From NCBI GenBank assembly GCA_020854065.1, contig JADZGF010000010.1, positions 1 through 44,520 on the forward strand: DNA of 44,520 nt, in the 5' to 3' direction. Positions 3,763 through 44,520 of the stretch are shown here, piece after piece. Numbering within the stretch: the first letter of the stretch is position 1; each line of letters begins with the position of its first letter. A model generated the notes under the pieces. The model was not told the origin of the DNA and did not search any database. It saw only the letters and a program-made list of their open reading frames with translations. A program made the translations under genes and the position numbers. Source of the DNA: Candidatus Nomurabacteria bacterium (GTDB taxonomy: Bacteria; Patescibacteriota; Minisyncoccia; Phycocordibacterales; SBAW01).

Positions 3763-4855
3763 AGCGCTAGCGACTCTCGCTCTCCTCGCTTTTGCCTTGC
3801 CTGCCCTTGCCGCGGTCAATATAAATACTGCCGGTCTGGACGAACTTGATGCCCTCCCAGGTATTGGGTCTGTAAAAGCTCAGGCCATTATCGACTACCG
3901 TACTGCAAACGGTCCGTTTGAAACAAAAGAGGAGTTACTCCAGGTCGATGGTATTGGGCAAGTAACATACGATGGACTTAAAGACCTCATCACAATTGAT
4001 GGGGAAAATAGTGCACACACCACTACCGCTGAAGACGATACCGACACTGCCGAGGAAACAGAAACTCCGTCAACGAGCTCCGGCTCATCTTCCAACAAGG
4101 GCGCGCCACTTAAGGGAGTAAAGATAAATTACGATACTGTTGTTGCTCAAGCGCCTACCACGTTCACTTCGGTAGTAACTGATACAAAAGGAACCGAACT
4201 TACCTACGGTGTACGTTACTGGTGGAATTTTGGCGACGGTACCACGGGGACCGACGCATTTCCTGTACATACGTACCAACATCCTGGTACGTACACGGTA
4301 ACTTTGCGCGTCACGCACAAAGATCTCGACGTATCCACTGAAGCAACAGTCGATGTGCTTACATCAGGTATTACACTGAGCACTCCGGGTGACGGTTCTG
4401 TTGCACTTAAAAATACAACGAATGCAGCAATAGATATTGGAGGTTGGATGCTGGTCGACCAAGATATCATCTTTACCATTCCTTCTGGTACGCGCATTGC
4501 AAAAGGTGCTGAAGTCCGTTTTGCCCGCTCCGTTACCGGACTTTTTGGCACGACATTTACGAGACTCTTGTTCCCGAACGGTATTCTTGCTGCTTCGGTA
4601 GTGGAGCCACAAAAGGATGTTCGAGTAGTGTCAGGAGCAGCGCCAAGTCATGTGCATCAAGAAATGGTGCCGCAAGAATCGGTACCTTCTGTAGATACTT
4701 CTCAATCAGCCGCTGTGGCACATACGCCACTTTCCCCATCTGTACTGCCATGGGCTGGACTTGTTGGCGTGGTGGCACTTGGATCTTTGGGTACCTACTT
4801 TTACACCCGCCGCCCGGTAACCAAGGCAAACCCTGAAGAGTTTGATATTGTGTAA
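3746..4855 (+). CDS. ComEA-like helix-hairpin-helix DNA-binding surface protein fused to PKD and lamin-tail (LTD)-like domains, C-terminally anchored
   Basis: Signal peptide MKPTVKALATLALLAFALPALA. INTAGLDELDALPGIGSVKAQAIIDYRTANGPFETKEELLQVDGIG is the ComEA HhH motif. An acidic Thr/Ser linker follows. WNFGDGTTG...HTYQHPGTYTVTLRVT is a PKD signature. VALKNTTNAAIDIGGWMLVD is LTD-like. The C-terminus has LPWAG plus a hydrophobic helix plus RRP. Confidence 0.75.
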   Translation: MKPTVKALATLALLAFALPALAAVNINTAGLDELDALPGIGSVKAQAIIDYRTANGPFETKEELLQVDGIGQVTYDGLKDLITIDGENSAHTTTAEDDTDTAEETETPSTSSGSSSNKGAPLKGVKINYDTVVAQAPTTFTSVVTDTKGTELTYGVRYWWNFGDGTTGTDAFPVHTYQHPGTYTVTLRVTHKDLDVSTEATVDVLTSGITLSTPGDGSVALKNTTNAAIDIGGWMLVDQDIIFTIPSGTRIAKGAEVRFARSVTGLFGTTFTRLLFPNGILAASVVEPQKDVRVVSGAAPSHVHQEMVPQESVPSVDTSQSAAVAHTPLSPSVLPWAGLVGVVALGSLGTYFYTRRPVTKANPEEFDIV

Positions 4856-4860
4856 CTAAC

Positions 4861-5709
4861 ATGGCTAAAACAGTAGTGGTAACCGGTGGAGCCGGATTTG
4901 TTGGTTCGCGTCTCTGTGAGCGCTTGGTGCGTGAAGGGTATCATGTTATCTCACTCGACAATTATTTTACGGGCACTGAGGAGAAACATATCGATGGGGT
5001 TGAATATCGAGTGGGACATACCAAAGATATTGCAAAGCTTGTCCCTGAAACACCCGACCTTATTTACCATTTGGGTGAGTATGCACGTGTTGAACAAAGC
5101 CTAAGCGAACCCCAAGTGGTGTGGGACCTTAATATAGCAGGAACTCAGGGTGTGCTTGAGTTTTGGCGTGCAAAAAAATGTAAACTCATTTATGCAGGTT
5201 CGAGCACCAAATTTGGCGATGGAGGTCTTTCTCGTGTAGCGACTCCGTATGCATGGACAAAGGCGGCCAATACCGAACTCGTTAAAAACTACGCAACATG
5301 GTATGGACTCCCTTTTGCTATTACCTACTTTTACAACGTATACGGCCCCGGTGAACGTGCCGGCAAGTATGGAACTGTCATTGAAATCTTCCGACAAAAG
5401 AAAGCTGCAGGAGAGCCGATTACGATAACCGCACCGGGTACTCAGAAGCGTAACTTTACGCACGTTGATGATATTGTTGATGGTCTAATCTTAGTTGGCG
5501 AGAAAGGTGAGGGTGAAGAATTTGGATTGGGTTCTGAGGAACCTTACTCTATACGCGAAGTAGCTGAGATGTTCGGCGGTCCTATCGAGATGCGCCCCGA
5601 AGCTGCAGGAAATCGTATGGACTCTATGCTTGATATCACGAAGTCTCGTGCAATTGGATGGTCTGCAAAAAAGAAACTGCCAGAATACATCAAGAGCATA
5701 CTCGCATGA
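4861..5709 (+). CDS. NAD-dependent nucleotide-sugar epimerase/dehydratase (extended SDR)
   Basis: VVVTGGAGFVGSRLCERL Rossmann motif, a YxxxK catalytic pair (YAWTK), and the GTQKRNFTHVDD motif typical of UDP-sugar epimerase/decarboxylase SDRs. Confidence 0.8.
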   Translation: MAKTVVVTGGAGFVGSRLCERLVREGYHVISLDNYFTGTEEKHIDGVEYRVGHTKDIAKLVPETPDLIYHLGEYARVEQSLSEPQVVWDLNIAGTQGVLEFWRAKKCKLIYAGSSTKFGDGGLSRVATPYAWTKAANTELVKNYATWYGLPFAITYFYNVYGPGERAGKYGTVIEIFRQKKAAGEPITITAPGTQKRNFTHVDDIVDGLILVGEKGEGEEFGLGSEEPYSIREVAEMFGGPIEMRPEAAGNRMDSMLDITKSRAIGWSAKKKLPEYIKSILA

Positions 5710-6788
5710 AACGCCTCCTTATATTTAGTCTTGCCTACCATCCGCGTGTGGGCGGTGCTGAGGTTGCAATAAAAGAGATTACGGACCGTATCCAAGATGT
5801 CGAGTTCCATCTTGTTACCAAGCGCTTTTCATCGAGTGACTCTGTGTTTGAGCGGTTAGGTAACGTGCAAGTGCATCGAGTAGGCGGTCCCGCATTTTTG
5901 TATCCGTTTGTGTCTTTCCTTAAAGCGCGCCAACTCCATCGGCAAAAAAAATTTGATGGTGCCTGGGCCATGATGTCATACATGGTTTTACCTATAGTGC
6001 TTCTGCGTATGGGTGGTATACGGCTTCCATATGTATTGACGCTCCAAGAAGGCGACACGTATGAGTATATGTTCGGTCGTCTCCACATTAAACCGTTTCT
6101 GCCATTTATCGATCGCGGCGTTCGCAACGCAGCCATTGTTCAGACAATCTCTACCTTCCTCAGTGTGTGGGCACGCAAGCGTGGCTATCACGGCGATATT
6201 GTCGTTGTGCCAAACGGAGTCGACACAAAAAAGTTTTCCGGTGAACATGTTCCGCAGAAAGGAACCACTCTTATTACGACCTCGCGCTTAGTGCATAAAA
6301 ACGGTATCGATACTGTCATCCGTGCGCTTCCGAATCTACCCAATGTTGAGTTTGTGATTTGTGGTACTGGTCCGGACGAGCAGATGCTGAAGACTCTTGC
6401 GAAAGAACTCGGGGTGACGGAGCGTGTTCATTGGCGCGGATTTGTAAGTCACGATGACATGCCACGACACTTGCATCACTCCGATATATTTATCCGCCCA
6501 AGTCGCTCCGAAGGAATGGGTAATTCATTTGTCGAAGCGATGGCTGCAGGTCTGCCTGTCATTGCTACACAAGAGGGTGGGCTCAAGGATTTTATCAATA
6601 GCCACACTGCCTGGGTGGTGTGCAAAGATCACCCCGAAGATATTGTTATGGCAGTGCAGGACATATTGGGTAACCCAGAGCACACTAACCGAGTTATACA
6701 AACTGCCCGGGAACTCGCATTTACAAAATATGACTGGGACCTTATTGCCAAAGACATGCGCGAGCAGGTCTTTGCCCGGGTGCTTTAA
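5706..6788 (+). CDS. Glycosyltransferase family 4 (GT-B)
   Basis: Start moved to ATG 5706 (MKRLLIFSLAYHPRVGGAEV), which forms an ATGA overlap with the upstream stop. The C-terminal E-x7-E region is RPSRSEGMGNSFVEAMAAGLPVIAT. Confidence 0.8.
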   Translation: MKRLLIFSLAYHPRVGGAEVAIKEITDRIQDVEFHLVTKRFSSSDSVFERLGNVQVHRVGGPAFLYPFVSFLKARQLHRQKKFDGAWAMMSYMVLPIVLLRMGGIRLPYVLTLQEGDTYEYMFGRLHIKPFLPFIDRGVRNAAIVQTISTFLSVWARKRGYHGDIVVVPNGVDTKKFSGEHVPQKGTTLITTSRLVHKNGIDTVIRALPNLPNVEFVICGTGPDEQMLKTLAKELGVTERVHWRGFVSHDDMPRHLHHSDIFIRPSRSEGMGNSFVEAMAAGLPVIATQEGGLKDFINSHTAWVVCKDHPEDIVMAVQDILGNPEHTNRVIQTARELAFTKYDWDLIAKDMREQVFARVL

Positions 6789-36663: not shown

Positions 36664-37428
36664 ATGTTCGAGATACCGCTCCTTATTGGAGCTTTTATTG
36701 CAGGAATCCTGATGTTTCTGGCGCCCTGCACGCTTCCTATCGTGCCAGCCTACCTCGCGTTCATCGCAGGCGTACCGCTTGATGCGCTTTCTCAAACTGA
36801 TGTTGCAGCACGTCGCAAAGCGCGGCGCGCAGTTATGCGCAACGCGTTAGCGTTTGTTATTGGTTTTTCTCTTATCTTTATTCTTCTCGGTGCTTCTGCA
36901 GGAGTGTTAGGGTCCTTACTTGGACCATGGCGTGGTCTTATTGCGAAAGTTGGAGGAGCTATAGTCATCTTCTTTGGCCTCACCATGCTTGGTCTTATCA
37001 ATGTATCGTTCGTCAATCGGGAACGCCACGTTCGCCTCCCTTCATTCTTGCGTCTCGGCACATTGCCAAGCTCTACGCTTATTGGCGCGCTCTTTGCAGT
37101 GGGGTGGAGTCCCTGCATCGGTCCTATCTTGGGTACCGTGCTCCTTATCGCCAGTAACCAAGCGACCGTCGTGTATGGAGCGGTATTGCTTGGTGTCTTT
37201 AGTCTCGGTTTAGCCATTCCATTTCTGTTAGTTGCTCGTGCGGTTGCAGAGGCAAGTGTACTTCTTGCGAAGCTCTCAGGCTTTGTCAGAGTGGTCTCAA
37301 TAGTGGGCGGTATCGGACTTGTGCTTGGCGGTACATTGATGCTTACAGGAAATATGAACTTGCTGGTTGCGTGGGGGTTCGAACTCTTTAATGGATTGGG
37401 GTATGAACGTTTGCTTGATTACCTCTAG
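36664..37428 (+). CDS. ccdA: Cytochrome c biogenesis protein CcdA / DsbD-family thiol-disulfide electron transporter
   Basis: FLAPCTLPIVPAYLAFIAG and GWSPCIGPILG, the two conserved Cys-Pro motifs, with six TM helices. Confidence 0.85.
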   Translation: MFEIPLLIGAFIAGILMFLAPCTLPIVPAYLAFIAGVPLDALSQTDVAARRKARRAVMRNALAFVIGFSLIFILLGASAGVLGSLLGPWRGLIAKVGGAIVIFFGLTMLGLINVSFVNRERHVRLPSFLRLGTLPSSTLIGALFAVGWSPCIGPILGTVLLIASNQATVVYGAVLLGVFSLGLAIPFLLVARAVAEASVLLAKLSGFVRVVSIVGGIGLVLGGTLMLTGNMNLLVAWGFELFNGLGYERLLDYL

Positions 37429-37480: not shown

Positions 37481-38182
37481 ATGTCCTGGCTAAAACTGCC
37501 GGAATGGCGATTCCTTGGAAGACTAAAGGGGGCGACGGTTCCCGCGCCACTCCCTGTTGCGGCAGATCGCGATCGATGGATACGACTGCGCGAGATGTTC
37601 ACCGAAGAAAAAGGAATGGAGGAGTTTTTCGGGGGAGAATTCGACACACTGCGCAACCACGAACATATCAGGCGTATCCGCGTGAGCGAGGACTATACCG
37701 TGAGTGTCAAGACAAAAAGATTGTTTGCAACGGTCCTCGACAGGACCTGCGGCAAACATAAGAGGCTCTATATAGGAGCCTTTAGGATTACGCTTTCGAT
37801 CGAACCAGGGACTCCAGTGATGGGTCTTGCAAATCGGCCTCGTGCGAAACTTCACACCATAGAGTGCTTGAGCTCAGGCAGACATGATGGCAAGAAAACC
37901 ACTATGTATGTTGTTGGTGGTAACGAGACAGGAGGCTTCTGTTTTGGGGCTCAAGAGGGGAATTCTTTTGTCACCCAACTGGTGACGTCGGGCGAGTTCT
38001 TCACACTTATCTTGTTCGTCATGGCGAGACTTGCTCACGTCAATAAAGAGAATGAGGCAAGTGCGCTGCGCGAGTATCGGCAAGTGCTTCCGGATGGAAG
38101 TGTTGCACAGCGCAGAAAGCCGCCACCCAAGGAAAGGTTGGTCCTCTTGCAAGGTGAATGGCCTATAGGAGAAGAACCATGA
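37481..38182 (+). CDS. Uncharacterised 233-aa protein, first gene of the E1/Ubl cassette (weak UBC/E2-like pattern, unproven)
   Basis: Strong SD and an ATGA coupling to the E1-like gene. No TM helix or signal peptide. Cys residues at positions 90, 129 and 154. The segment KRLYIGAFRITLSIEPG...LHTIECL...HDG...GGFCFG loosely recalls E2 core motifs. Confidence 0.6.
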   Translation: MSWLKLPEWRFLGRLKGATVPAPLPVAADRDRWIRLREMFTEEKGMEEFFGGEFDTLRNHEHIRRIRVSEDYTVSVKTKRLFATVLDRTCGKHKRLYIGAFRITLSIEPGTPVMGLANRPRAKLHTIECLSSGRHDGKKTTMYVVGGNETGGFCFGAQEGNSFVTQLVTSGEFFTLILFVMARLAHVNKENEASALREYRQVLPDGSVAQRRKPPPKERLVLLQGEWPIGEEP

Positions 38183-38853
38183 CTCTCTATCCCGACAGAT
38201 TAGGGTATGGCGTGGTGTGTGTTGGTGCAGGAGGTATTGGCAGCCATGTGCTACCCATGCTTGCTCGTGCCGGCGTCACCCGCTTTGTCCTCTACGACGA
38301 TGACACGGTCGCTGATGTAAATCTCCAGATGCAAAACTTCAATGCTGACGAAATTGGCCAGCATAAAGTGTATGTGATGGAGAAACGCTTGCGGGCTATC
38401 AACCCCGCCGTGTGCATATCGGCACGACCGGTGCGATTTGGTGACTCGGCGGCACTTGACGGTATTGTCGTAAGCGCCGTAGACTCAATGCAGAGCCGCA
38501 CAGAGATCTTTGACGCAGTTCGTCAGAGGCGAAACACCATCGCGCTCTTTATCGATGGGAGGCTGACACGATCAGGAGATTTCATCGATCTGTATTTCAT
38601 CGACCCGAAAAATGGTTACGATATGCAGAGCTATGAATCTCTCTTGTTTGGAGATCCCGGGGGCCCTCAGCCCCCGCGGCCCGACAGTATGACGGCACAC
38701 GTGCCGCTCGTGCTCGCAGGACTCATTGGCGAAGTGCTTGCCCAATGGGGAGCCGGCAGGCGTCACCCCTGGAAGGTGACATATGATGGGTTGGCGCACC
38801 ATACCGAAAGGTATTATGCGCAAGCCTTTTCACAACTGGAGGCTGCTTCATGA
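38179..38853 (+). CDS. Minimal ThiF/MoeB/E1-like adenylyltransferase (adenylation domain only)
   Basis: Start moved to ATG 38179 (ATGA overlap; AGGAG at 38167-38171). Motifs VCVGAGGIGSHVLPMLARAGV, FVLYDDDTVADVNLQMQNF and VVSAVDSMQSR. No CxxC zinc motifs, and no Cys after residue 85. Confidence 0.8.
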   Translation: MTLYPDRLGYGVVCVGAGGIGSHVLPMLARAGVTRFVLYDDDTVADVNLQMQNFNADEIGQHKVYVMEKRLRAINPAVCISARPVRFGDSAALDGIVVSAVDSMQSRTEIFDAVRQRRNTIALFIDGRLTRSGDFIDLYFIDPKNGYDMQSYESLLFGDPGGPQPPRPDSMTAHVPLVLAGLIGEVLAQWGAGRRHPWKVTYDGLAHHTERYYAQAFSQLEAAS

Positions 38854-39056
38854 TCCGTTTTCTGAAAGCTGGCGACACACCCAAGAATGTTCTCTGCAGT
38901 TTCGACAAGACAACGGCAGGTGATGTCCTTGGACAACTCGGCGAAAATGTCGGTGGTGGCAGTGTTCTCACGATCAACGGTCGCGGCGCACAGCCCTCAG
39001 ACCCGGTGAAGCCTGGCGACACCGTGTCGGTTCAACCTCAGGCCCGCAACGGCTAA
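38850..39056 (+). CDS. Ubiquitin-like / ThiS-MoaD-like beta-grasp protein ending in ...ARNG
   Basis: 68 aa, with an ATGA overlap to the E1-like gene. TAGDVLGQLGEN...VLTINGRGAQPSDPVKPGDTVSVQPQARNG-stop matches the ThiS/MoaD pattern (..vNg....pl.dGD.v.i.p...G). Confidence 0.6.
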   Translation: MIRFLKAGDTPKNVLCSFDKTTAGDVLGQLGENVGGGSVLTINGRGAQPSDPVKPGDTVSVQPQARNG

Positions 39057-39080: not shown

Positions 39081-39116
39081 GGCGTTGTGCATCATGCACG
39101 GCGCCCTTTTCTTTTT
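39081..39116 (+). terminator. Rho-independent terminator closing the Ubl cassette
   Basis: GGCGTTGTGC-atcat-GCACGGCGCC (10-bp stem with two G-U pairs) followed by cttttcttttt. Confidence 0.6.
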
Positions 39117-41874: not shown

Positions 41875-42564
41875 ATGGACGAGCTTGAACTTTCTGGTCG
41901 ACGTCATCTCTCGGCAAAGCGTGCTGCGCGTGAGCATCGCTATCATAGTGATTACATTGGACAGCTTATCCGCTCGGGTAAAGTTGCAGGCCAAAAGGTT
42001 GGCCGTTCCTGGTATGTCGATGCAGAGTCTCTGAGTGCCTACCTTGCGGGGGAGTCACAGCCTGCCGCTCCGGCACAGGTGCCACCACCTGTTCCAACTC
42101 CTCCTCCGGCACCTGTTGAGGCTCCTGCCCCGCAACCAGTAGTAGAGACTCCGGTTGTCGAAGTAGAAGAAAAAGAAGAAGTTGAAGTTGTTGTGCCGCA
42201 ACCCGTGCGCATAACAAAAACTCCTGAACCAATTGTCGTCGAAGAAAAACCGCAACCTATAAAAATTTCTACACCATCACCTGTTCCACAACCAACAGGT
42301 TTACGATTTGTTCCTGACGATGAACCTATTGTGCGTGCGGTGCATACTATGCCAACACCGCAGACAGCGTACGACGATAGTGACGATGAAGGAGACGTTG
42401 TCATCACTCCTTCAGTGAAGTCATCTCGCATGCAACCCGTTATGCTCGCGACACTTGCAGTGTGTGCATTCGCTCTCACGCTTGCATCATCATATTTTTT
42501 TGTACATCGCACTATAGTTGCAGGCAGCAACACAAGTGCAGCGGTGCAGTTAAGCGGTAAGTAG
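41875..42564 (+). CDS. Membrane-tethered helix-turn-helix protein: excisionase/MerR-like HTH, Pro-rich linker and C-terminal TM
   Basis: LSAKRAAREHRYHSDYIGQLIRSGKVAGQKVGRSWYVDAESLSAYL is an HTH_17-like pattern. The Pro/Val/Glu linker reads PAAPAQVPPPVPTPPPAPVEAPAPQP. The TM helix is VMLATLAVCAFALTLASSYFFV. Confidence 0.6.
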   Translation: MDELELSGRRHLSAKRAAREHRYHSDYIGQLIRSGKVAGQKVGRSWYVDAESLSAYLAGESQPAAPAQVPPPVPTPPPAPVEAPAPQPVVETPVVEVEEKEEVEVVVPQPVRITKTPEPIVVEEKPQPIKISTPSPVPQPTGLRFVPDDEPIVRAVHTMPTPQTAYDDSDDEGDVVITPSVKSSRMQPVMLATLAVCAFALTLASSYFFVHRTIVAGSNTSAAVQLSGK

Positions 42565-43043: not shown

Positions 43044-44520
43044 ATGACCTCGGATAACAAATCATATATAGCTACGAACGAGGTAATCCTTTCTGCAAAG
43101 GAGGCTGCGAATCTTTTGCAGTGCACTCCAGACTACATCACCAAACTTGCCAGAGAAGGCAAGCTCGACGGTACGCAAAACGGTAAGGGTTGGCAGGTGA
43201 CTCATTCGTCACTCAAGCGTTATGAGGCAACGCGTGATAACCAGAAAGCCGAGCGAGCGAAAGACCTTGCAGAGGAACGTCGCCGTGAGCTTGTTGCGTC
43301 AACTCCAACTTCGCTCAAGCACGTATACGTTGCGCTCATGCTCTCACTTGTGTTTGGTGCTACAACATTTTCTCTTGCGTCCGTTATCAAACACGATGTT
43401 GCCGGAATACAGGCAGCTTCTCTTGGTCGTGTTGAATCACCTTTCTTTGCTTCATTTGATCTTGGAGGTGTAGTTGGTTCTGTACGCGATGCAGTTGCTC
43501 GCTTGTTTGCGCCATCAACAAATCTTTCACCAGTTGCGAATCAAAATATCTCGACACCAAACACAGCAACCACAACGATAGTAAACAATTACACGACCGC
43601 TCAGGTTGTTGAACGAATTGTTGAGCGTGTTGCACCAGCAGACTCAGCAACACTCACGGTTAACTTTAGTGACTGGGCTACTGCTTTTGAGACTCGCTTT
43701 GAACTGCAGGTCAACCGCATTTTTGATGTTATTGGTGACCTTGAAACTGGTGGGGGCGGAATTAGCACCATTACCGATGCCGACGTCCCGGACACTATAA
43801 CCGCAAGTAACTATCTACCACTCGCAGGAGGCACCCTGACCGGTGATCTCTTTGGTACCACTGCAACCTTTGACTCGATCTTGGTGACGGATGCTACTTC
43901 GACCAATGCAACGACGACTAATTTCTGGTTGCTTGGTGCGGCAGAAGGGTGTGCGCAGTTTGATACCAACGGCAAATTAACATCGACTGGCACGAACTGT
44001 GGCAGCGGTGGCGGCGGCGCTGATGGTAACTGGGTGTACTTCAATGGTTCTGGTATTCGTCTGGCAACAACCTCGGTTCAGGTAGTCATTGGTGCAACTG
44101 CTACATCGAGTGATTCAAAAGTACAAATTGTCGGTGGTCTTACGCTCGACAACTCCACAACAACCAGCGCCACAACAACCACCTTTGGAATCACTGCACT
44201 TCAAAACGCACTTCTTGGTACGAACGCAGAAGGGTCTGTCATTGCAACTACTTCACTCTCTATCAGTCAGTACCTAACGGGCACTCTTCCTGTTGCAAAC
44301 GGCGGTACCGGCGCATCCTCTCTCACATCTGGCCAGCTCCTCTATGGAGCAGGAACCGGTGCAGTACAGAGTGTTGCAACCGGCACCGTCTCCTCCGGCG
44401 CAGGTATCTCAGTGACTGCAGGCCAGTACATCATCGGCTCAGGGCTTACCATCACCAACACCGGCGTTACCTCTCTTGCAGGCACGGCAAACCAAATCAC
44501 TGCAAGTGCTGCAACTGGTG
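43044..44520 (+). CDS. Large surface protein, 3-prime partial: N-terminal HTH, TM helix and an extracellular Thr/Gly-rich region with phage-tail-fibre-like motifs
   Basis: Not in the ORF track because it runs off the window. Hand translation from ATG 43044 gives 492 codons with no stop. The HTH is LSAKEAANLLQCTPDYITKLAREGKLDGTQNGKGWQV. The TM helix is VYVALMLSLVFGATTFSLASVI. Other motifs are YLPLAGGTLTGDL (43812-43850) and LPVANGGTGASSL (44286-44324). Confidence 0.65.
   Translation, partial: MTSDNKSYIATNEVILSAKEAANLLQCTPDYITKLAREGKLDGTQNGKGWQVTHSSLKRYEATRDNQKAERAKDLAEERRRELVASTPTSLKHVYVALMLSLVFGATTFSLASVIKHDVAGIQAASLGRVESPFFASFDLGGVVGSVRDAVARLFAPSTNLSPVANQNISTPNTATTTIVNNYTTAQVVERIVERVAPADSATLTVNFSDWATAFETRFELQVNRIFDVIGDLETGGGGISTITDADVPDTITASNYLPLAGGTLTGDLFGTTATFDSILVTDATSTNATTTNFWLLGAAEGCAQFDTNGKLTSTGTNCGSGGGGADGNWVYFNGSGIRLATTSVQVVIGATATSSDSKVQIVGGLTLDNSTTTSATTTTFGITALQNALLGTNAEGSVIATTSLSISQYLTGTLPVANGGTGASSLTSGQLLYGAGTGAVQSVATGTVSSGAGISVTAGQYIIGSGLTITNTGVTSLAGTANQITASAATG

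Follow-up and report, generated by a model that had tools for sequence, protein, structure and literature searches.

A stretch of 44,520 nucleotides from contig JADZGF010000010.1 of a Candidatus Nomurabacteria bacterium, hereafter the window, contains a cassette of three genes that encode a protein of a family without an existing model (protein A), an E1-like adenylyltransferase of the ThiF family and a small ubiquitin-like protein (Ubl). The E1-like enzyme lacks the Arg residue of the NLxRQ motif, the Zn site and the crossover-loop Cys at once and is encoded next to a Cys-bearing partner, a combination that matches no described system. The three genes are on one strand in the order of protein A, E1-like enzyme and Ubl and span positions 37481-39056 (Table 1). 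At both junctions, the stop codon of the upstream gene overlaps the start codon of the downstream gene in an ATGA sequence. Shine-Dalgarno-like motifs precede the start codons of protein A (AAGGAGG) and of the E1-like gene (AGGAGA). Given the two ATGA overlaps and the terminator-like hairpin, the genes for protein A, the E1-like enzyme and the Ubl form one translationally coupled operon. The E1-like gene of the cassette is the sole ThiF-family gene of the host genome.

Table 1. Genes, sequence motifs and terminator-like hairpin of the cassette (positions are those of the window)
Feature	Position	Strand	Remarks
Protein A	37481-38182	+	233 amino acid residues; open reading frame of a family without an existing model, in which a single Cys is invariant; possible E2-like carrier
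Codon of protein A Cys154 (G-G-F-C-F-G)	37940-37942	+	Invariant Cys of the family
E1-like enzyme (ThiF-family adenylyltransferase)	38179-38853	+	224 amino acid residues; PF00899 match; without NLxRQ Arg, crossover Cys and Zn site
NLQMQ, with Met51 for the ATP-contacting Arg	38320-38334	+	Aligned to ThiF and MccB; none of the 15 family members has Arg
D126-G127-R128, candidate replacement Arg	38554-38562	+	Invariant in the 15-member family; without counterpart in canonical proteins and PRTRC ThiF
Crossover segment P166-R167...H174	38674-38700	+	Arg at the position of the relatives' crossover-loop Cys; invariant H174 after it
Ubl	38850-39056	+	68 amino acid residues; ThiS/SAMP2-type beta-grasp; tail Asn67-Gly68 at 39048-39053
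Terminator-like hairpin	39081-39115	+	11 pairs (7 GC) followed by a T-run; 3' end of the three-gene operon

The E1-like enzyme and its relatives

The E1-like protein matched PF00899 with 78 bits (77.4 bits in the genome scan) and an E-value of 7.9e-22, against a gathering cut-off of 28.1 bits, and the match was limited to residues 12-118. The PADLOC models for E1-E2 (Cap2) proteins also matched its Rossmann half. Among the NCBIfam models, the best rows were those of ThiF and MoeB, and the scores were far below the cut-off of every equivalog, which included ThiF, MoeB, UbaA, PRTRC ThiF and Cap2-type proteins. For instance, the scores and cut-offs were 74.3 and 159 for PRK08644, 59.8 and 275 for TIGR02356, 55.8 and 266 for PRK05690, and 46.5 and 144.75 for TIGR03736, the model of PRTRC ThiF. 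In addition, the N-terminal segment is short, as residue 11 of the E1-like protein pairs with residue 30 of ThiF.

Of 647 candidates from a word-indexed search for homologs, 21 proteins reached E<=1e-3; 15 of these were 43-78% identical to the query and were aligned as a family. Residues G16, G18, G19, D40, N48, Q52, K63, D102 and R107 were invariant in all 21 sequences, including three canonical MoeB-like proteins, and G21 was invariant or nearly so. Thus the GxGxxG loop, the ribose ligand D40, K63 and the Mg-binding D102 are all kept. The residues invariant specifically in the 15 close homologs were D126-G127-R128, R131, Y152, H174, P176 and P197-W198-K199. No alignment column of this family held an invariant Cys.

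An earlier reading of the DNA made without database searches (the sequence-only reading) had counted two Cys residues in the 224-residue protein, and translation of 38179-38853 gave the same two, residue 14 in VVCVGAGG and residue 79 in AVCISARP. It had further stated that Cys is missing from the crossover loop and downstream of it. No Cys was indeed found beyond residue 79, but the segment taken for the crossover loop, IDGRLTRSGDFIDLYFIDP (residues 125-143), was not the equivalent region. Alignment with canonical MoeB/ThiF-like proteins placed that region further downstream, at about residues 150-176 (QSYES...PRPDSMTAHVP). The claimed absence of the two Zn-binding CxxC motifs was confirmed, given that a regular-expression search found no CxxC, that S-Y-E-S is opposite the C-Y-R-C of the canonical proteins P0019-P0021 and that the C-terminal CxxC region is missing. 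Similarly, Met51 of NLQMQ (residues 48-52) was found at the Arg position of NLxRQ as that reading had proposed. HMMER alignments paired NLQMQ with NLQRQ of Escherichia coli ThiF (1zud) and with NLTRQ of MccB. At this position, the 15 close homologs possess Met (11), Gln (2) or Ala (2).

To place these features in a wider set, 83 loci from scans of genome and metagenome contigs were combined with phage, plasmid and host-genome loci, and together they contained 79 E1-like open reading frames (ORFs). The Arg of NLxRQ was absent in 78 of the 79, and the sole exception was PRTRC ThiF (NVGRQ). All 77 Arg-less ORFs that covered the site possessed the Arg of a D-x-R motif aligned to R128, while the ORF of locus L078 was cut short of it. 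None of the three canonical proteins nor PRTRC ThiF possesses an Arg at the R128 position. This co-variation suggests that R128 of D-G-R is likely a relocated active-site Arg. The Arg-less relatives came from genomes of the candidate phyla radiation (CPR), marine phage-like contigs, crAss-like phages and Flavobacterium phages. All of them possess the crossover-loop Cys except for 8 rows, which are the window (L087) and L001-L007. The position of this Cys is an Arg in the Cys-less rows, with Met in L004, and L005 is identical to L003.

A maximum-likelihood tree was built from 41 E1 rows, in which the roughly 55 marine sequences that are nearly identical to one another were represented by 5 chosen by hand. 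The root was assumed, with the canonical proteins as outgroup, and the PRTRC branch was long. The split between the Arg-less clade (37 rows) and the canonical and PRTRC proteins was supported at 96/91. The Cys-less subclade, which consisted of 16 rows, all from CPR, was monophyletic (100/100) and joined Cys-bearing, protein-A-linked E1s of other CPR genomes (86/84). With the canonical proteins as outgroup, this topology suggests that the loss of Arg is old and that the loss of Cys was one later event. The sequence-only reading regarded the combination of deviations in the E1-like enzyme and the Ubl as unusual. By alignment, however, the Arg-less state is the rule in a large uncharacterized clade, so that Met for Arg is not unusual in itself. 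The Cys-less state, in contrast, is by the tree a derived one that is confined to a single CPR subclade.

The Ubl, protein A and their gene context

Searched as a single sequence against Pfam, the Ubl scored below the cut-offs of Ub-Mut7C (19.4 versus 23 bits) and ThiS (18.2 versus 22.5 bits). When searched against PDB, the profile A8, which was built from eight small proteins encoded in such cassettes, matched SAMP2 of Pyrococcus (5lda_B, E 1.5e-6), PF1061 (1rws, E 2.8e-6) and SAMP2 of Haloferax (E about 5e-4). A8 and SAMP2 aligned over their whole length; their last Gly residues coincided, and Asn67 was opposite the penultimate Gly. By these profile matches, the 68-residue protein is a genuine beta-grasp Ubl of the ThiS/MoaD/SAMP type.

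The C-terminal tail of the Ubl reads QARNG and lacks Gly-Gly, in agreement with the sequence-only reading. The terminal Gly was found in all six distinct cassettes, and five of them ended in Asn-Gly (NG): the window, L001 (LANNG), L002 (KAKNG), L003 (VARNG) and L088 (AVNG). The sixth, L007, ended in Leu-Gly (GDLG). The NG tail is thus a family trait. It is also paired with a Cys-bearing E1, in L088. Two further loci have extensions: in L069 the tail is GG followed by two residues, and in L092 a second beta-grasp ending in PNG is followed by a Cys-containing extension. The protein of L092, from the CPR genome G185, is encoded downstream of the E1-like gene (4384-4995, minus strand). It consists of 203 amino acid residues with apparently two tandem beta-grasp domains, and its extension after ...KPNG bears a CxxC motif. 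The same locus also contains an ORF for 280 amino acid residues (5837-6679) between the protein-A-domain gene and the E1 gene.

Protein A, searched singly or as a family, had no match in Pfam, NCBIfam, PADLOC, PHROG or the sequences of PDB, and the Atlas search of named clusters with protein A gave no usable match. The family is previously unrecognized and is without a model in Pfam, NCBIfam, PADLOC and PHROGs. An exhaustive profile search identified 170 representatives at E<=1e-3, of which 46 were at <=1e-10. About half of the representatives are 300-1000 amino acid residues long with the domain at the C-terminal end. In the alignment of 157 domains, C154 was conserved in 152 of 152 sequences, G156 in 150 of 152 and N188 in 136 of 147. 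Upstream of C154, position 141 was His in 68 of 117, position 142 was Pro in 64 of 142 and position 143 was Tyr in 95 and His in 40 of 147. Position 186 was His in 55 and Ser in 51 of 149 sequences, and H186 is not conserved in the family. The resulting signature is HP[Y/H]-x(n)-C-[FL]-G...[H/S]-x-N. The motif HP[YHFW]-x(3-20)-C-hydrophobic-G occurred in 56 of 154 representatives, and protein A of the window has T-M-Y at the corresponding place. Moreover, C129 was invariant together with C154 in the close CPR set and was conserved in 70 of 128 sequences family-wide.

Classical E2s possess an HPN motif 7-10 residues ahead of their Cys. In the Atlas comparison with the model of protein A, the sole named neighbor of comparable size was Prok-E2_D, with TM scores of 0.36/0.38 over 138 residues. 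The hhalign alignment to Prok-E2_D was co-linear and placed Y...C-x-G on PPY...IC-I-G and H-x-N on H-P-N. From its motifs, its gene context and a weak Atlas hint, protein A is somewhat more likely than not a divergent E2-like carrier. Comparisons of protein A profiles by hhalign with the PRTRC protein A (JAB) and with the crAss JAB-like protein showed no relation. The long relatives P0064 and P0072 had no match in viral contigs, tblastn of P0064 and P0028 against the phage collection returned no match, and BLAST of P0076 and similar relatives found no match to the marine proteins of about 600 amino acid residues described below.

The genes for protein A and the E1-like enzyme are strongly linked. 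Protein A directly precedes the E1 in L001, L002, L003 and L007, and its homologs adjoin E1-like genes in these four loci as well as in L069, L077, L088, L092 and L093. Locus L069 contains a protein A homolog, the GG-type Ubl and a possible JAB-like gene that had no Pfam match at E<=0.01. In the public records, the relatives are named Paceibacterota, Parcubacteria and Saccharibacteria (CPR/Patescibacteria). Among 401 genomes sampled from the phylum, the host genome included, the protein A profile was found in 3 and the E1 query in 2. All three further CPR genomes (G185, G095 and G254) have a protein-A-domain protein beside an Arg-less E1-like gene.

The association extends to marine phage-like contigs, in which a JAB-like gene and a gene for a protein of about 600 amino acid residues with an HPY...N-I-C-x-G core are followed by the E1. 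This core aligned to the protein A profile with an hhalign probability of 59.5% and an E-value of 9e-5, and the motif HP[YHFW]-x(3-20)-C-hydrophobic-G was found in 27 of 33 of these proteins. Upstream sequence of 3 kb or more was available for 42 Arg-less E1 loci. Of these, 36 had protein A or its relative of about 600 residues within 3.5 kb upstream and 35 had a JAB-like gene, while the 6 CPR-type loci had protein A and no JAB. Examples of the marine cassettes are L010, L016, L026, L036, L049, L060 and L068, with about 25 more. In these (e.g., L060:3008-6627), the HPY protein, a JAB-like protein of about 300 residues (Prok-JAB 21 bits, below cut-off) and an Arg-less E1 (NIGVS) adjoin replication-type genes. 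Similar to the marine E1s, the proteins annotated as thiamine biosynthesis protein (ThiF) in the crAss-like phage cr111_1 (L084:2637-4642) and the Flavobacterium phage FpV4 (L085:2686-4618) are Arg-less, D-G-R-containing and Cys-bearing E1s, each of which follows a gene for a JAB-like or metalloprotease-domain protein. For these two genes, the annotation as thiamine biosynthesis is probably wrong. Beside most of the phage JAB-E1 dyads, no small Ubl gene was identified, although no systematic search for one was made.

A candidate transfer module and its alternatives

Judged from sequence, we tentatively favor the reading that the cassette encodes a minimal module for ubiquitin-like activation and transfer, in which the Cys of protein A would take the Ubl directly from an adenylating E1. 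ATP would be bound by the usual Rossmann residues of the E1-like enzyme, and R128, located after strand beta-5, would take over from the NLxRQ Arg the contacts to the phosphates and the acyl-adenylate. The enzyme would then adenylate the C-terminal Gly68 of the SAMP2/ThiS-like Ubl. An E1~Ubl thioester would not be formed, since no Cys follows residue 79 and none is conserved in the family; the crossover Cys is now Arg167 and the Zn site is lost. Instead, Cys154 of protein A would attack the Ubl-adenylate, and the Ubl~protein A thioester formed in this way would pass the Ubl to a presumed target. As the other adenylation residues are invariant and no Cys is conserved, an E1 that makes only the adenylate would be the simplest reading. 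The sequence-only reading had already suggested such an enzyme, with protein A, a persulfide donor or an amine as the attacking partner. Attack by protein A appears to fit best because its Cys is invariant (152 of 152), its gene is coupled to that of the E1 through ATGA and the two genes are adjacent in three further CPR genomes. The option of a persulfide donor was weakened, as the Pfam families of ThiG, MoaE, ATP_bind_3 and ThiS were not found in the 95%-complete host genome.

Several observations weigh against this module. Mutants in the NLxRQ-type Arg of canonical, Bil and Bub E1s (R246A, R227A and R219A) are reported to lose adenylation (PMC11601596 for Bub). Adenylation without this Arg is therefore an assumption. 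It may also be that the crossover Cys of the sister E1s, like that of MoeB, never had a catalytic role, in which case its loss would say little. The hhalign match between protein A and Prok-E2_D was not significant (probability 1.3-2.5%, E 0.02-0.04), the Atlas TM scores for this pair were below 0.5 and the Pfam E2 models matched 0 of 47 members of the protein A family. Finally, no target, E3 or deconjugating peptidase was evident within the cassette.

Of the known systems, PRTRC (class 6d of Iyer and Aravind, with Prok_Ub, Prok-E2_D, DUF2016+Prok-JAB and PRTRC ThiF) resembles the cassette in having a small single-domain E1 without the Zn CxxC pair, encoded directly after a partner gene. Each of the two cassettes also encodes a beta-grasp protein of small size and a Cys-bearing protein, which is E2-like in PRTRC and a candidate E2-like carrier here. 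The motif order Y...C-x-G...H-x-N is also shared by protein A and Prok-E2_D. However, PRTRC ThiF keeps both the Arg (NVGRQ) and the crossover Cys and branches outside the Arg-less clade on a long branch, and the E1-like enzyme of this study scored 46.5 on TIGR03736, far from its cut-off of 144.75. The cassette also lacks ParB, JAB and the PRTRC E/F genes, the Pfam families Prok_Ub, Prok-E2_D and DUF2016-JAB were not found among its neighbors, and protein A matched no Prok-E2 model of Pfam. Bil (BilABCD) and Cap2/Cap3 of the cyclic-oligonucleotide-based antiphage signaling system (CBASS) are similar to the cassette as bacterial conjugation modules of E1, E2 and Ubl (or a Ubl-like C-terminus) that are often mobile and patchily distributed. 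The Bil E1 is reported to depend on R246, on a Zn site of four Cys residues and on the catalytic Cys domain with C417, all of which are absent from the E1-like enzyme of the window. Different from the cassette, Cap2 is an E2-E1 fusion that is accompanied by the JAB protein Cap3.

The phage JAB-E1 dyads of cr111_1, FpV4 and the marine contigs are alike in that their E1s belong to the same Arg-less, D-G-R-containing and Zn-less clade, and the marine members also have the upstream HPY...C-x-G protein related to protein A. They differ in the crossover Cys, which is kept, and in the JAB-like neighbor. No experimental characterization of these dyads was found in the literature, where the matches listed for crAss, ThiF and ubiquitin were unrelated. 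Nor was any literature found that links Patescibacteria, ThiF and ubiquitin-like proteins; the E1-like survey of Burroughs et al. and the supplementary operon tables on Bil and Bub were outside the scope of this search and may list the clade. A broader proposal, which we regard as possible but doubtful, is that the Arg-less D-G-R E1s and the HP[Y/H]...C-x-G proteins constitute a widespread undescribed Ubl transfer system of phages and CPR. In such a system the adenylation Arg would have moved to another structural element, and the CPR branch would in addition skip the E1 thioester.

Among the alternatives to direct transfer to protein A, an unlikely one is that the cassette is a sulfur carrier system, in which a persulfide from protein A Cys129/Cys154 or from a cysteine desulfurase-like protein would convert the Ubl-adenylate to a thiocarboxylate that feeds sulfur insertion. 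MoeB-type enzymes work without an E1 thioester, and the similarities to MoeB/ThiF-MoaD/ThiS and UbaA-SAMP2 include the adenylation-domain family and the adenylate-only chemistry of the MoeB type. The Ubl is nearest to SAMP2, PF1061 and MoaD-type proteins, the best NCBIfam rows are ThiF and MoeB, both Cys residues of protein A are invariant in the close CPR set, the genome contains one Aminotran_5 (cysteine desulfurase-like) gene and a gene for a CcdA-like thiol-disulfide protein is directly upstream in four cassettes. Opposed to this, the E1-like enzyme lacks the Zn CxxC motifs and the NLxRQ Arg of MoeB/ThiF and scores far under their equivalog cut-offs (e.g., 74 versus 159), the Ubl ends in NG rather than GG and C129 is not conserved family-wide. 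Searches of the host genome, which is 95.4% complete so that incompleteness may account for an absence, did not find ThiG (PF05690), MoaE (PF02391) or ATP_bind_3 (PF01171, TtuA/NcsA-type). The Pfam families ThiS and Prok-JAB were also not found there. The lack of these sulfur-acceptor families weakens the persulfide option. In addition, an occurrence in 2 (E1) and 3 (protein A) of 401 genomes is unlike that of a housekeeping cofactor pathway, and the relatives are found on phage-like contigs with JAB-like genes. The missing acceptors, the rarity in the phylum and the kinship with phage JAB-linked E1s argue against a role in the synthesis of thiamine or molybdenum cofactor or in tRNA thiolation and argue for a conjugation or defense-type accessory module.

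It is also quite unlikely that protein A is not a carrier and functions as another Cys enzyme, such as a peptidase or deconjugase, or as a substrate, with an amine or another protein resolving the adenylate. Protein A has no significant likeness to any E2 model, its Cys...[H/S]-x-N residues (C154, H/S186 and N188) can be read as a hydrolase-type set and many of its relatives are 400-700 residues long with N-terminal regions of no assigned function. A peptidase is nonetheless not required for maturation, because the CPR Ubl ends exactly at Gly and thus needs no processing, and the lineages with Ubl extensions (L069 and L092) have an extra JAB-like or unassigned gene. The variable H186 also speaks against a hydrolase, while HP[Y/H]-x(n)-C and the order in which the motifs follow each other are as in E2-like proteins.

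Similar to the E1-like enzyme of the window, the Bub E1s (BubCD/BubBD) lack the crossover Cys, depart from the rule of an E1 thioester and are encoded in a bacterial operon with a Ubl and an E2 (PMC11601596). An oxyester of the Bub kind, in which a covalent E1 intermediate on Tyr152, His174 or a crossover Ser/Thr would precede the handover of the Ubl to protein A, is judged improbable; the sequence-only reading had named a Ser or Thr as an alternative oxyester acceptor. In Bub E1s, an invariant Tyr of the crossover loop takes the place of the Cys (PMC11601596). The alignment of the 15 close homologs conserves Y152 and H174 throughout, and around the crossover region no other hydroxyl or imidazole side chain is invariant. 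The canonical MoeB-like proteins, however, all share Y152 as well, as the Tyr within their first Zn CxxC (C-Y-R-C), so that this residue looks structural. Different from the present cassette, the Bub E1s also retain the adenylation Arg (R227/R219), and the Tyr oxyester of Bub is combined with a Ser-type E2, while the Cys of protein A is invariant. Bub further involves an E1 fused to a JAB peptidase and a DUF6527 protease (BubE; PMC11601596). Neither Prok-JAB nor DUF6527 was found in the host genome.

That the E1-like protein is a dead scaffold or pseudoenzyme, which would bind only the Ubl or a nucleotide, is highly improbable. The Arg reported as essential for adenylation in Bil and Bub E1s and the Zn site are lost and the N-terminal segment is short, but the other nucleotide- and Mg-binding residues are invariant despite long divergence (43-78% identity), a compensating invariant Arg exists, the terminal Gly of the Ubl is kept in every distinct cassette and the whole large clade would need to be dead. 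Finally, MccB-like succinimide chemistry at the tail Asn was rejected, as Asn is the terminal residue of the MccB substrate while Gly is terminal here, and MccB keeps NLTRQ.

Surroundings and significance of the cassette

The host genome (G000) consists of 620 kb in 17 contigs. In this genome PF01171 (ATP_bind_3, TilS/TtuA) had no match at E<=1e-3, while it was present in 14 of 14 control genomes, which would be odd if TilS is needed. The operon lies between a gene for a CcdA-like membrane protein and genes for a small membrane protein and Obg. The former, a CcdA/DsbD-like thiol-disulfide membrane protein (36664-37428, plus strand), is encoded directly upstream of the cassette in the window, L001, L002 and L007. 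It is kept in the Paceibacteria-type loci and missing in the Saccharibacteria locus L003, and this neighborhood may reflect functional linkage or mere synteny. Further downstream, the ORFs at 41875-42564 and 43044-44519, both on the plus strand and the latter running past the end of the window, have similar helix-turn-helix-like N-termini (…YI..L.R.GK..G.K.G..W…). These are followed by Pro-rich or Thr/Gly-rich regions that are probably surface-exposed.

The GC content of the cassette was 0.51-0.56, compared with about 0.48-0.52 around it, and a foreign origin by composition was rejected because this contrast is too slight. A promoter scan of the cassette gave a single weak internal match that was not above those of shuffled sequences. 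Expression was assessed with assembled contigs of RNA libraries instead of raw reads, for which stretches without cover are uninformative. Contigs of 250-262 nucleotides from three metatranscriptomic wastewater libraries of one study covered 38607-39006 with zero differences and spanned the junction of the E1 and Ubl genes. These contigs are a weak hint of transcription, and carry-over of DNA is possible.

Cap2/Cap3, Bil and Bub each overturned a supposed rule of E1-E2 systems, and the present cassette would add two exceptions. If the proposed module is true, the first is an adenylating E1 without the NLxRQ Arg, the mutation of which served as the "dead" control in the studies of Bil and Bub, with an Arg possibly supplied from another strand, and the second is a cascade without an E1 thioester that nevertheless has a Cys-bearing partner. 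The cassette would thus be a natural cascade of two enzymes and one thioester that tolerates an Asn-Gly tail and is, in its mechanism, intermediate between the sulfur carriers of the MoeB type and ubiquitination by canonical E1-E2 enzymes. With proteins of 233, 224 and 68 amino acid residues, it is an easy target for reconstitution. The association with an E1-like enzyme and a Ubl also provides the first functional context for the protein A family, which comprises no fewer than 170 sequence clusters and is without a Pfam model. Moreover, genes annotated as thiamine biosynthesis protein ThiF in crAss-like and Flavobacterium phages are placed in this Arg-less clade with JAB neighbors and not with thiamine synthesis. 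Finally, the cassette places a Ubl system in the ultra-small genomes of CPR bacteria, where each retained gene is informative.

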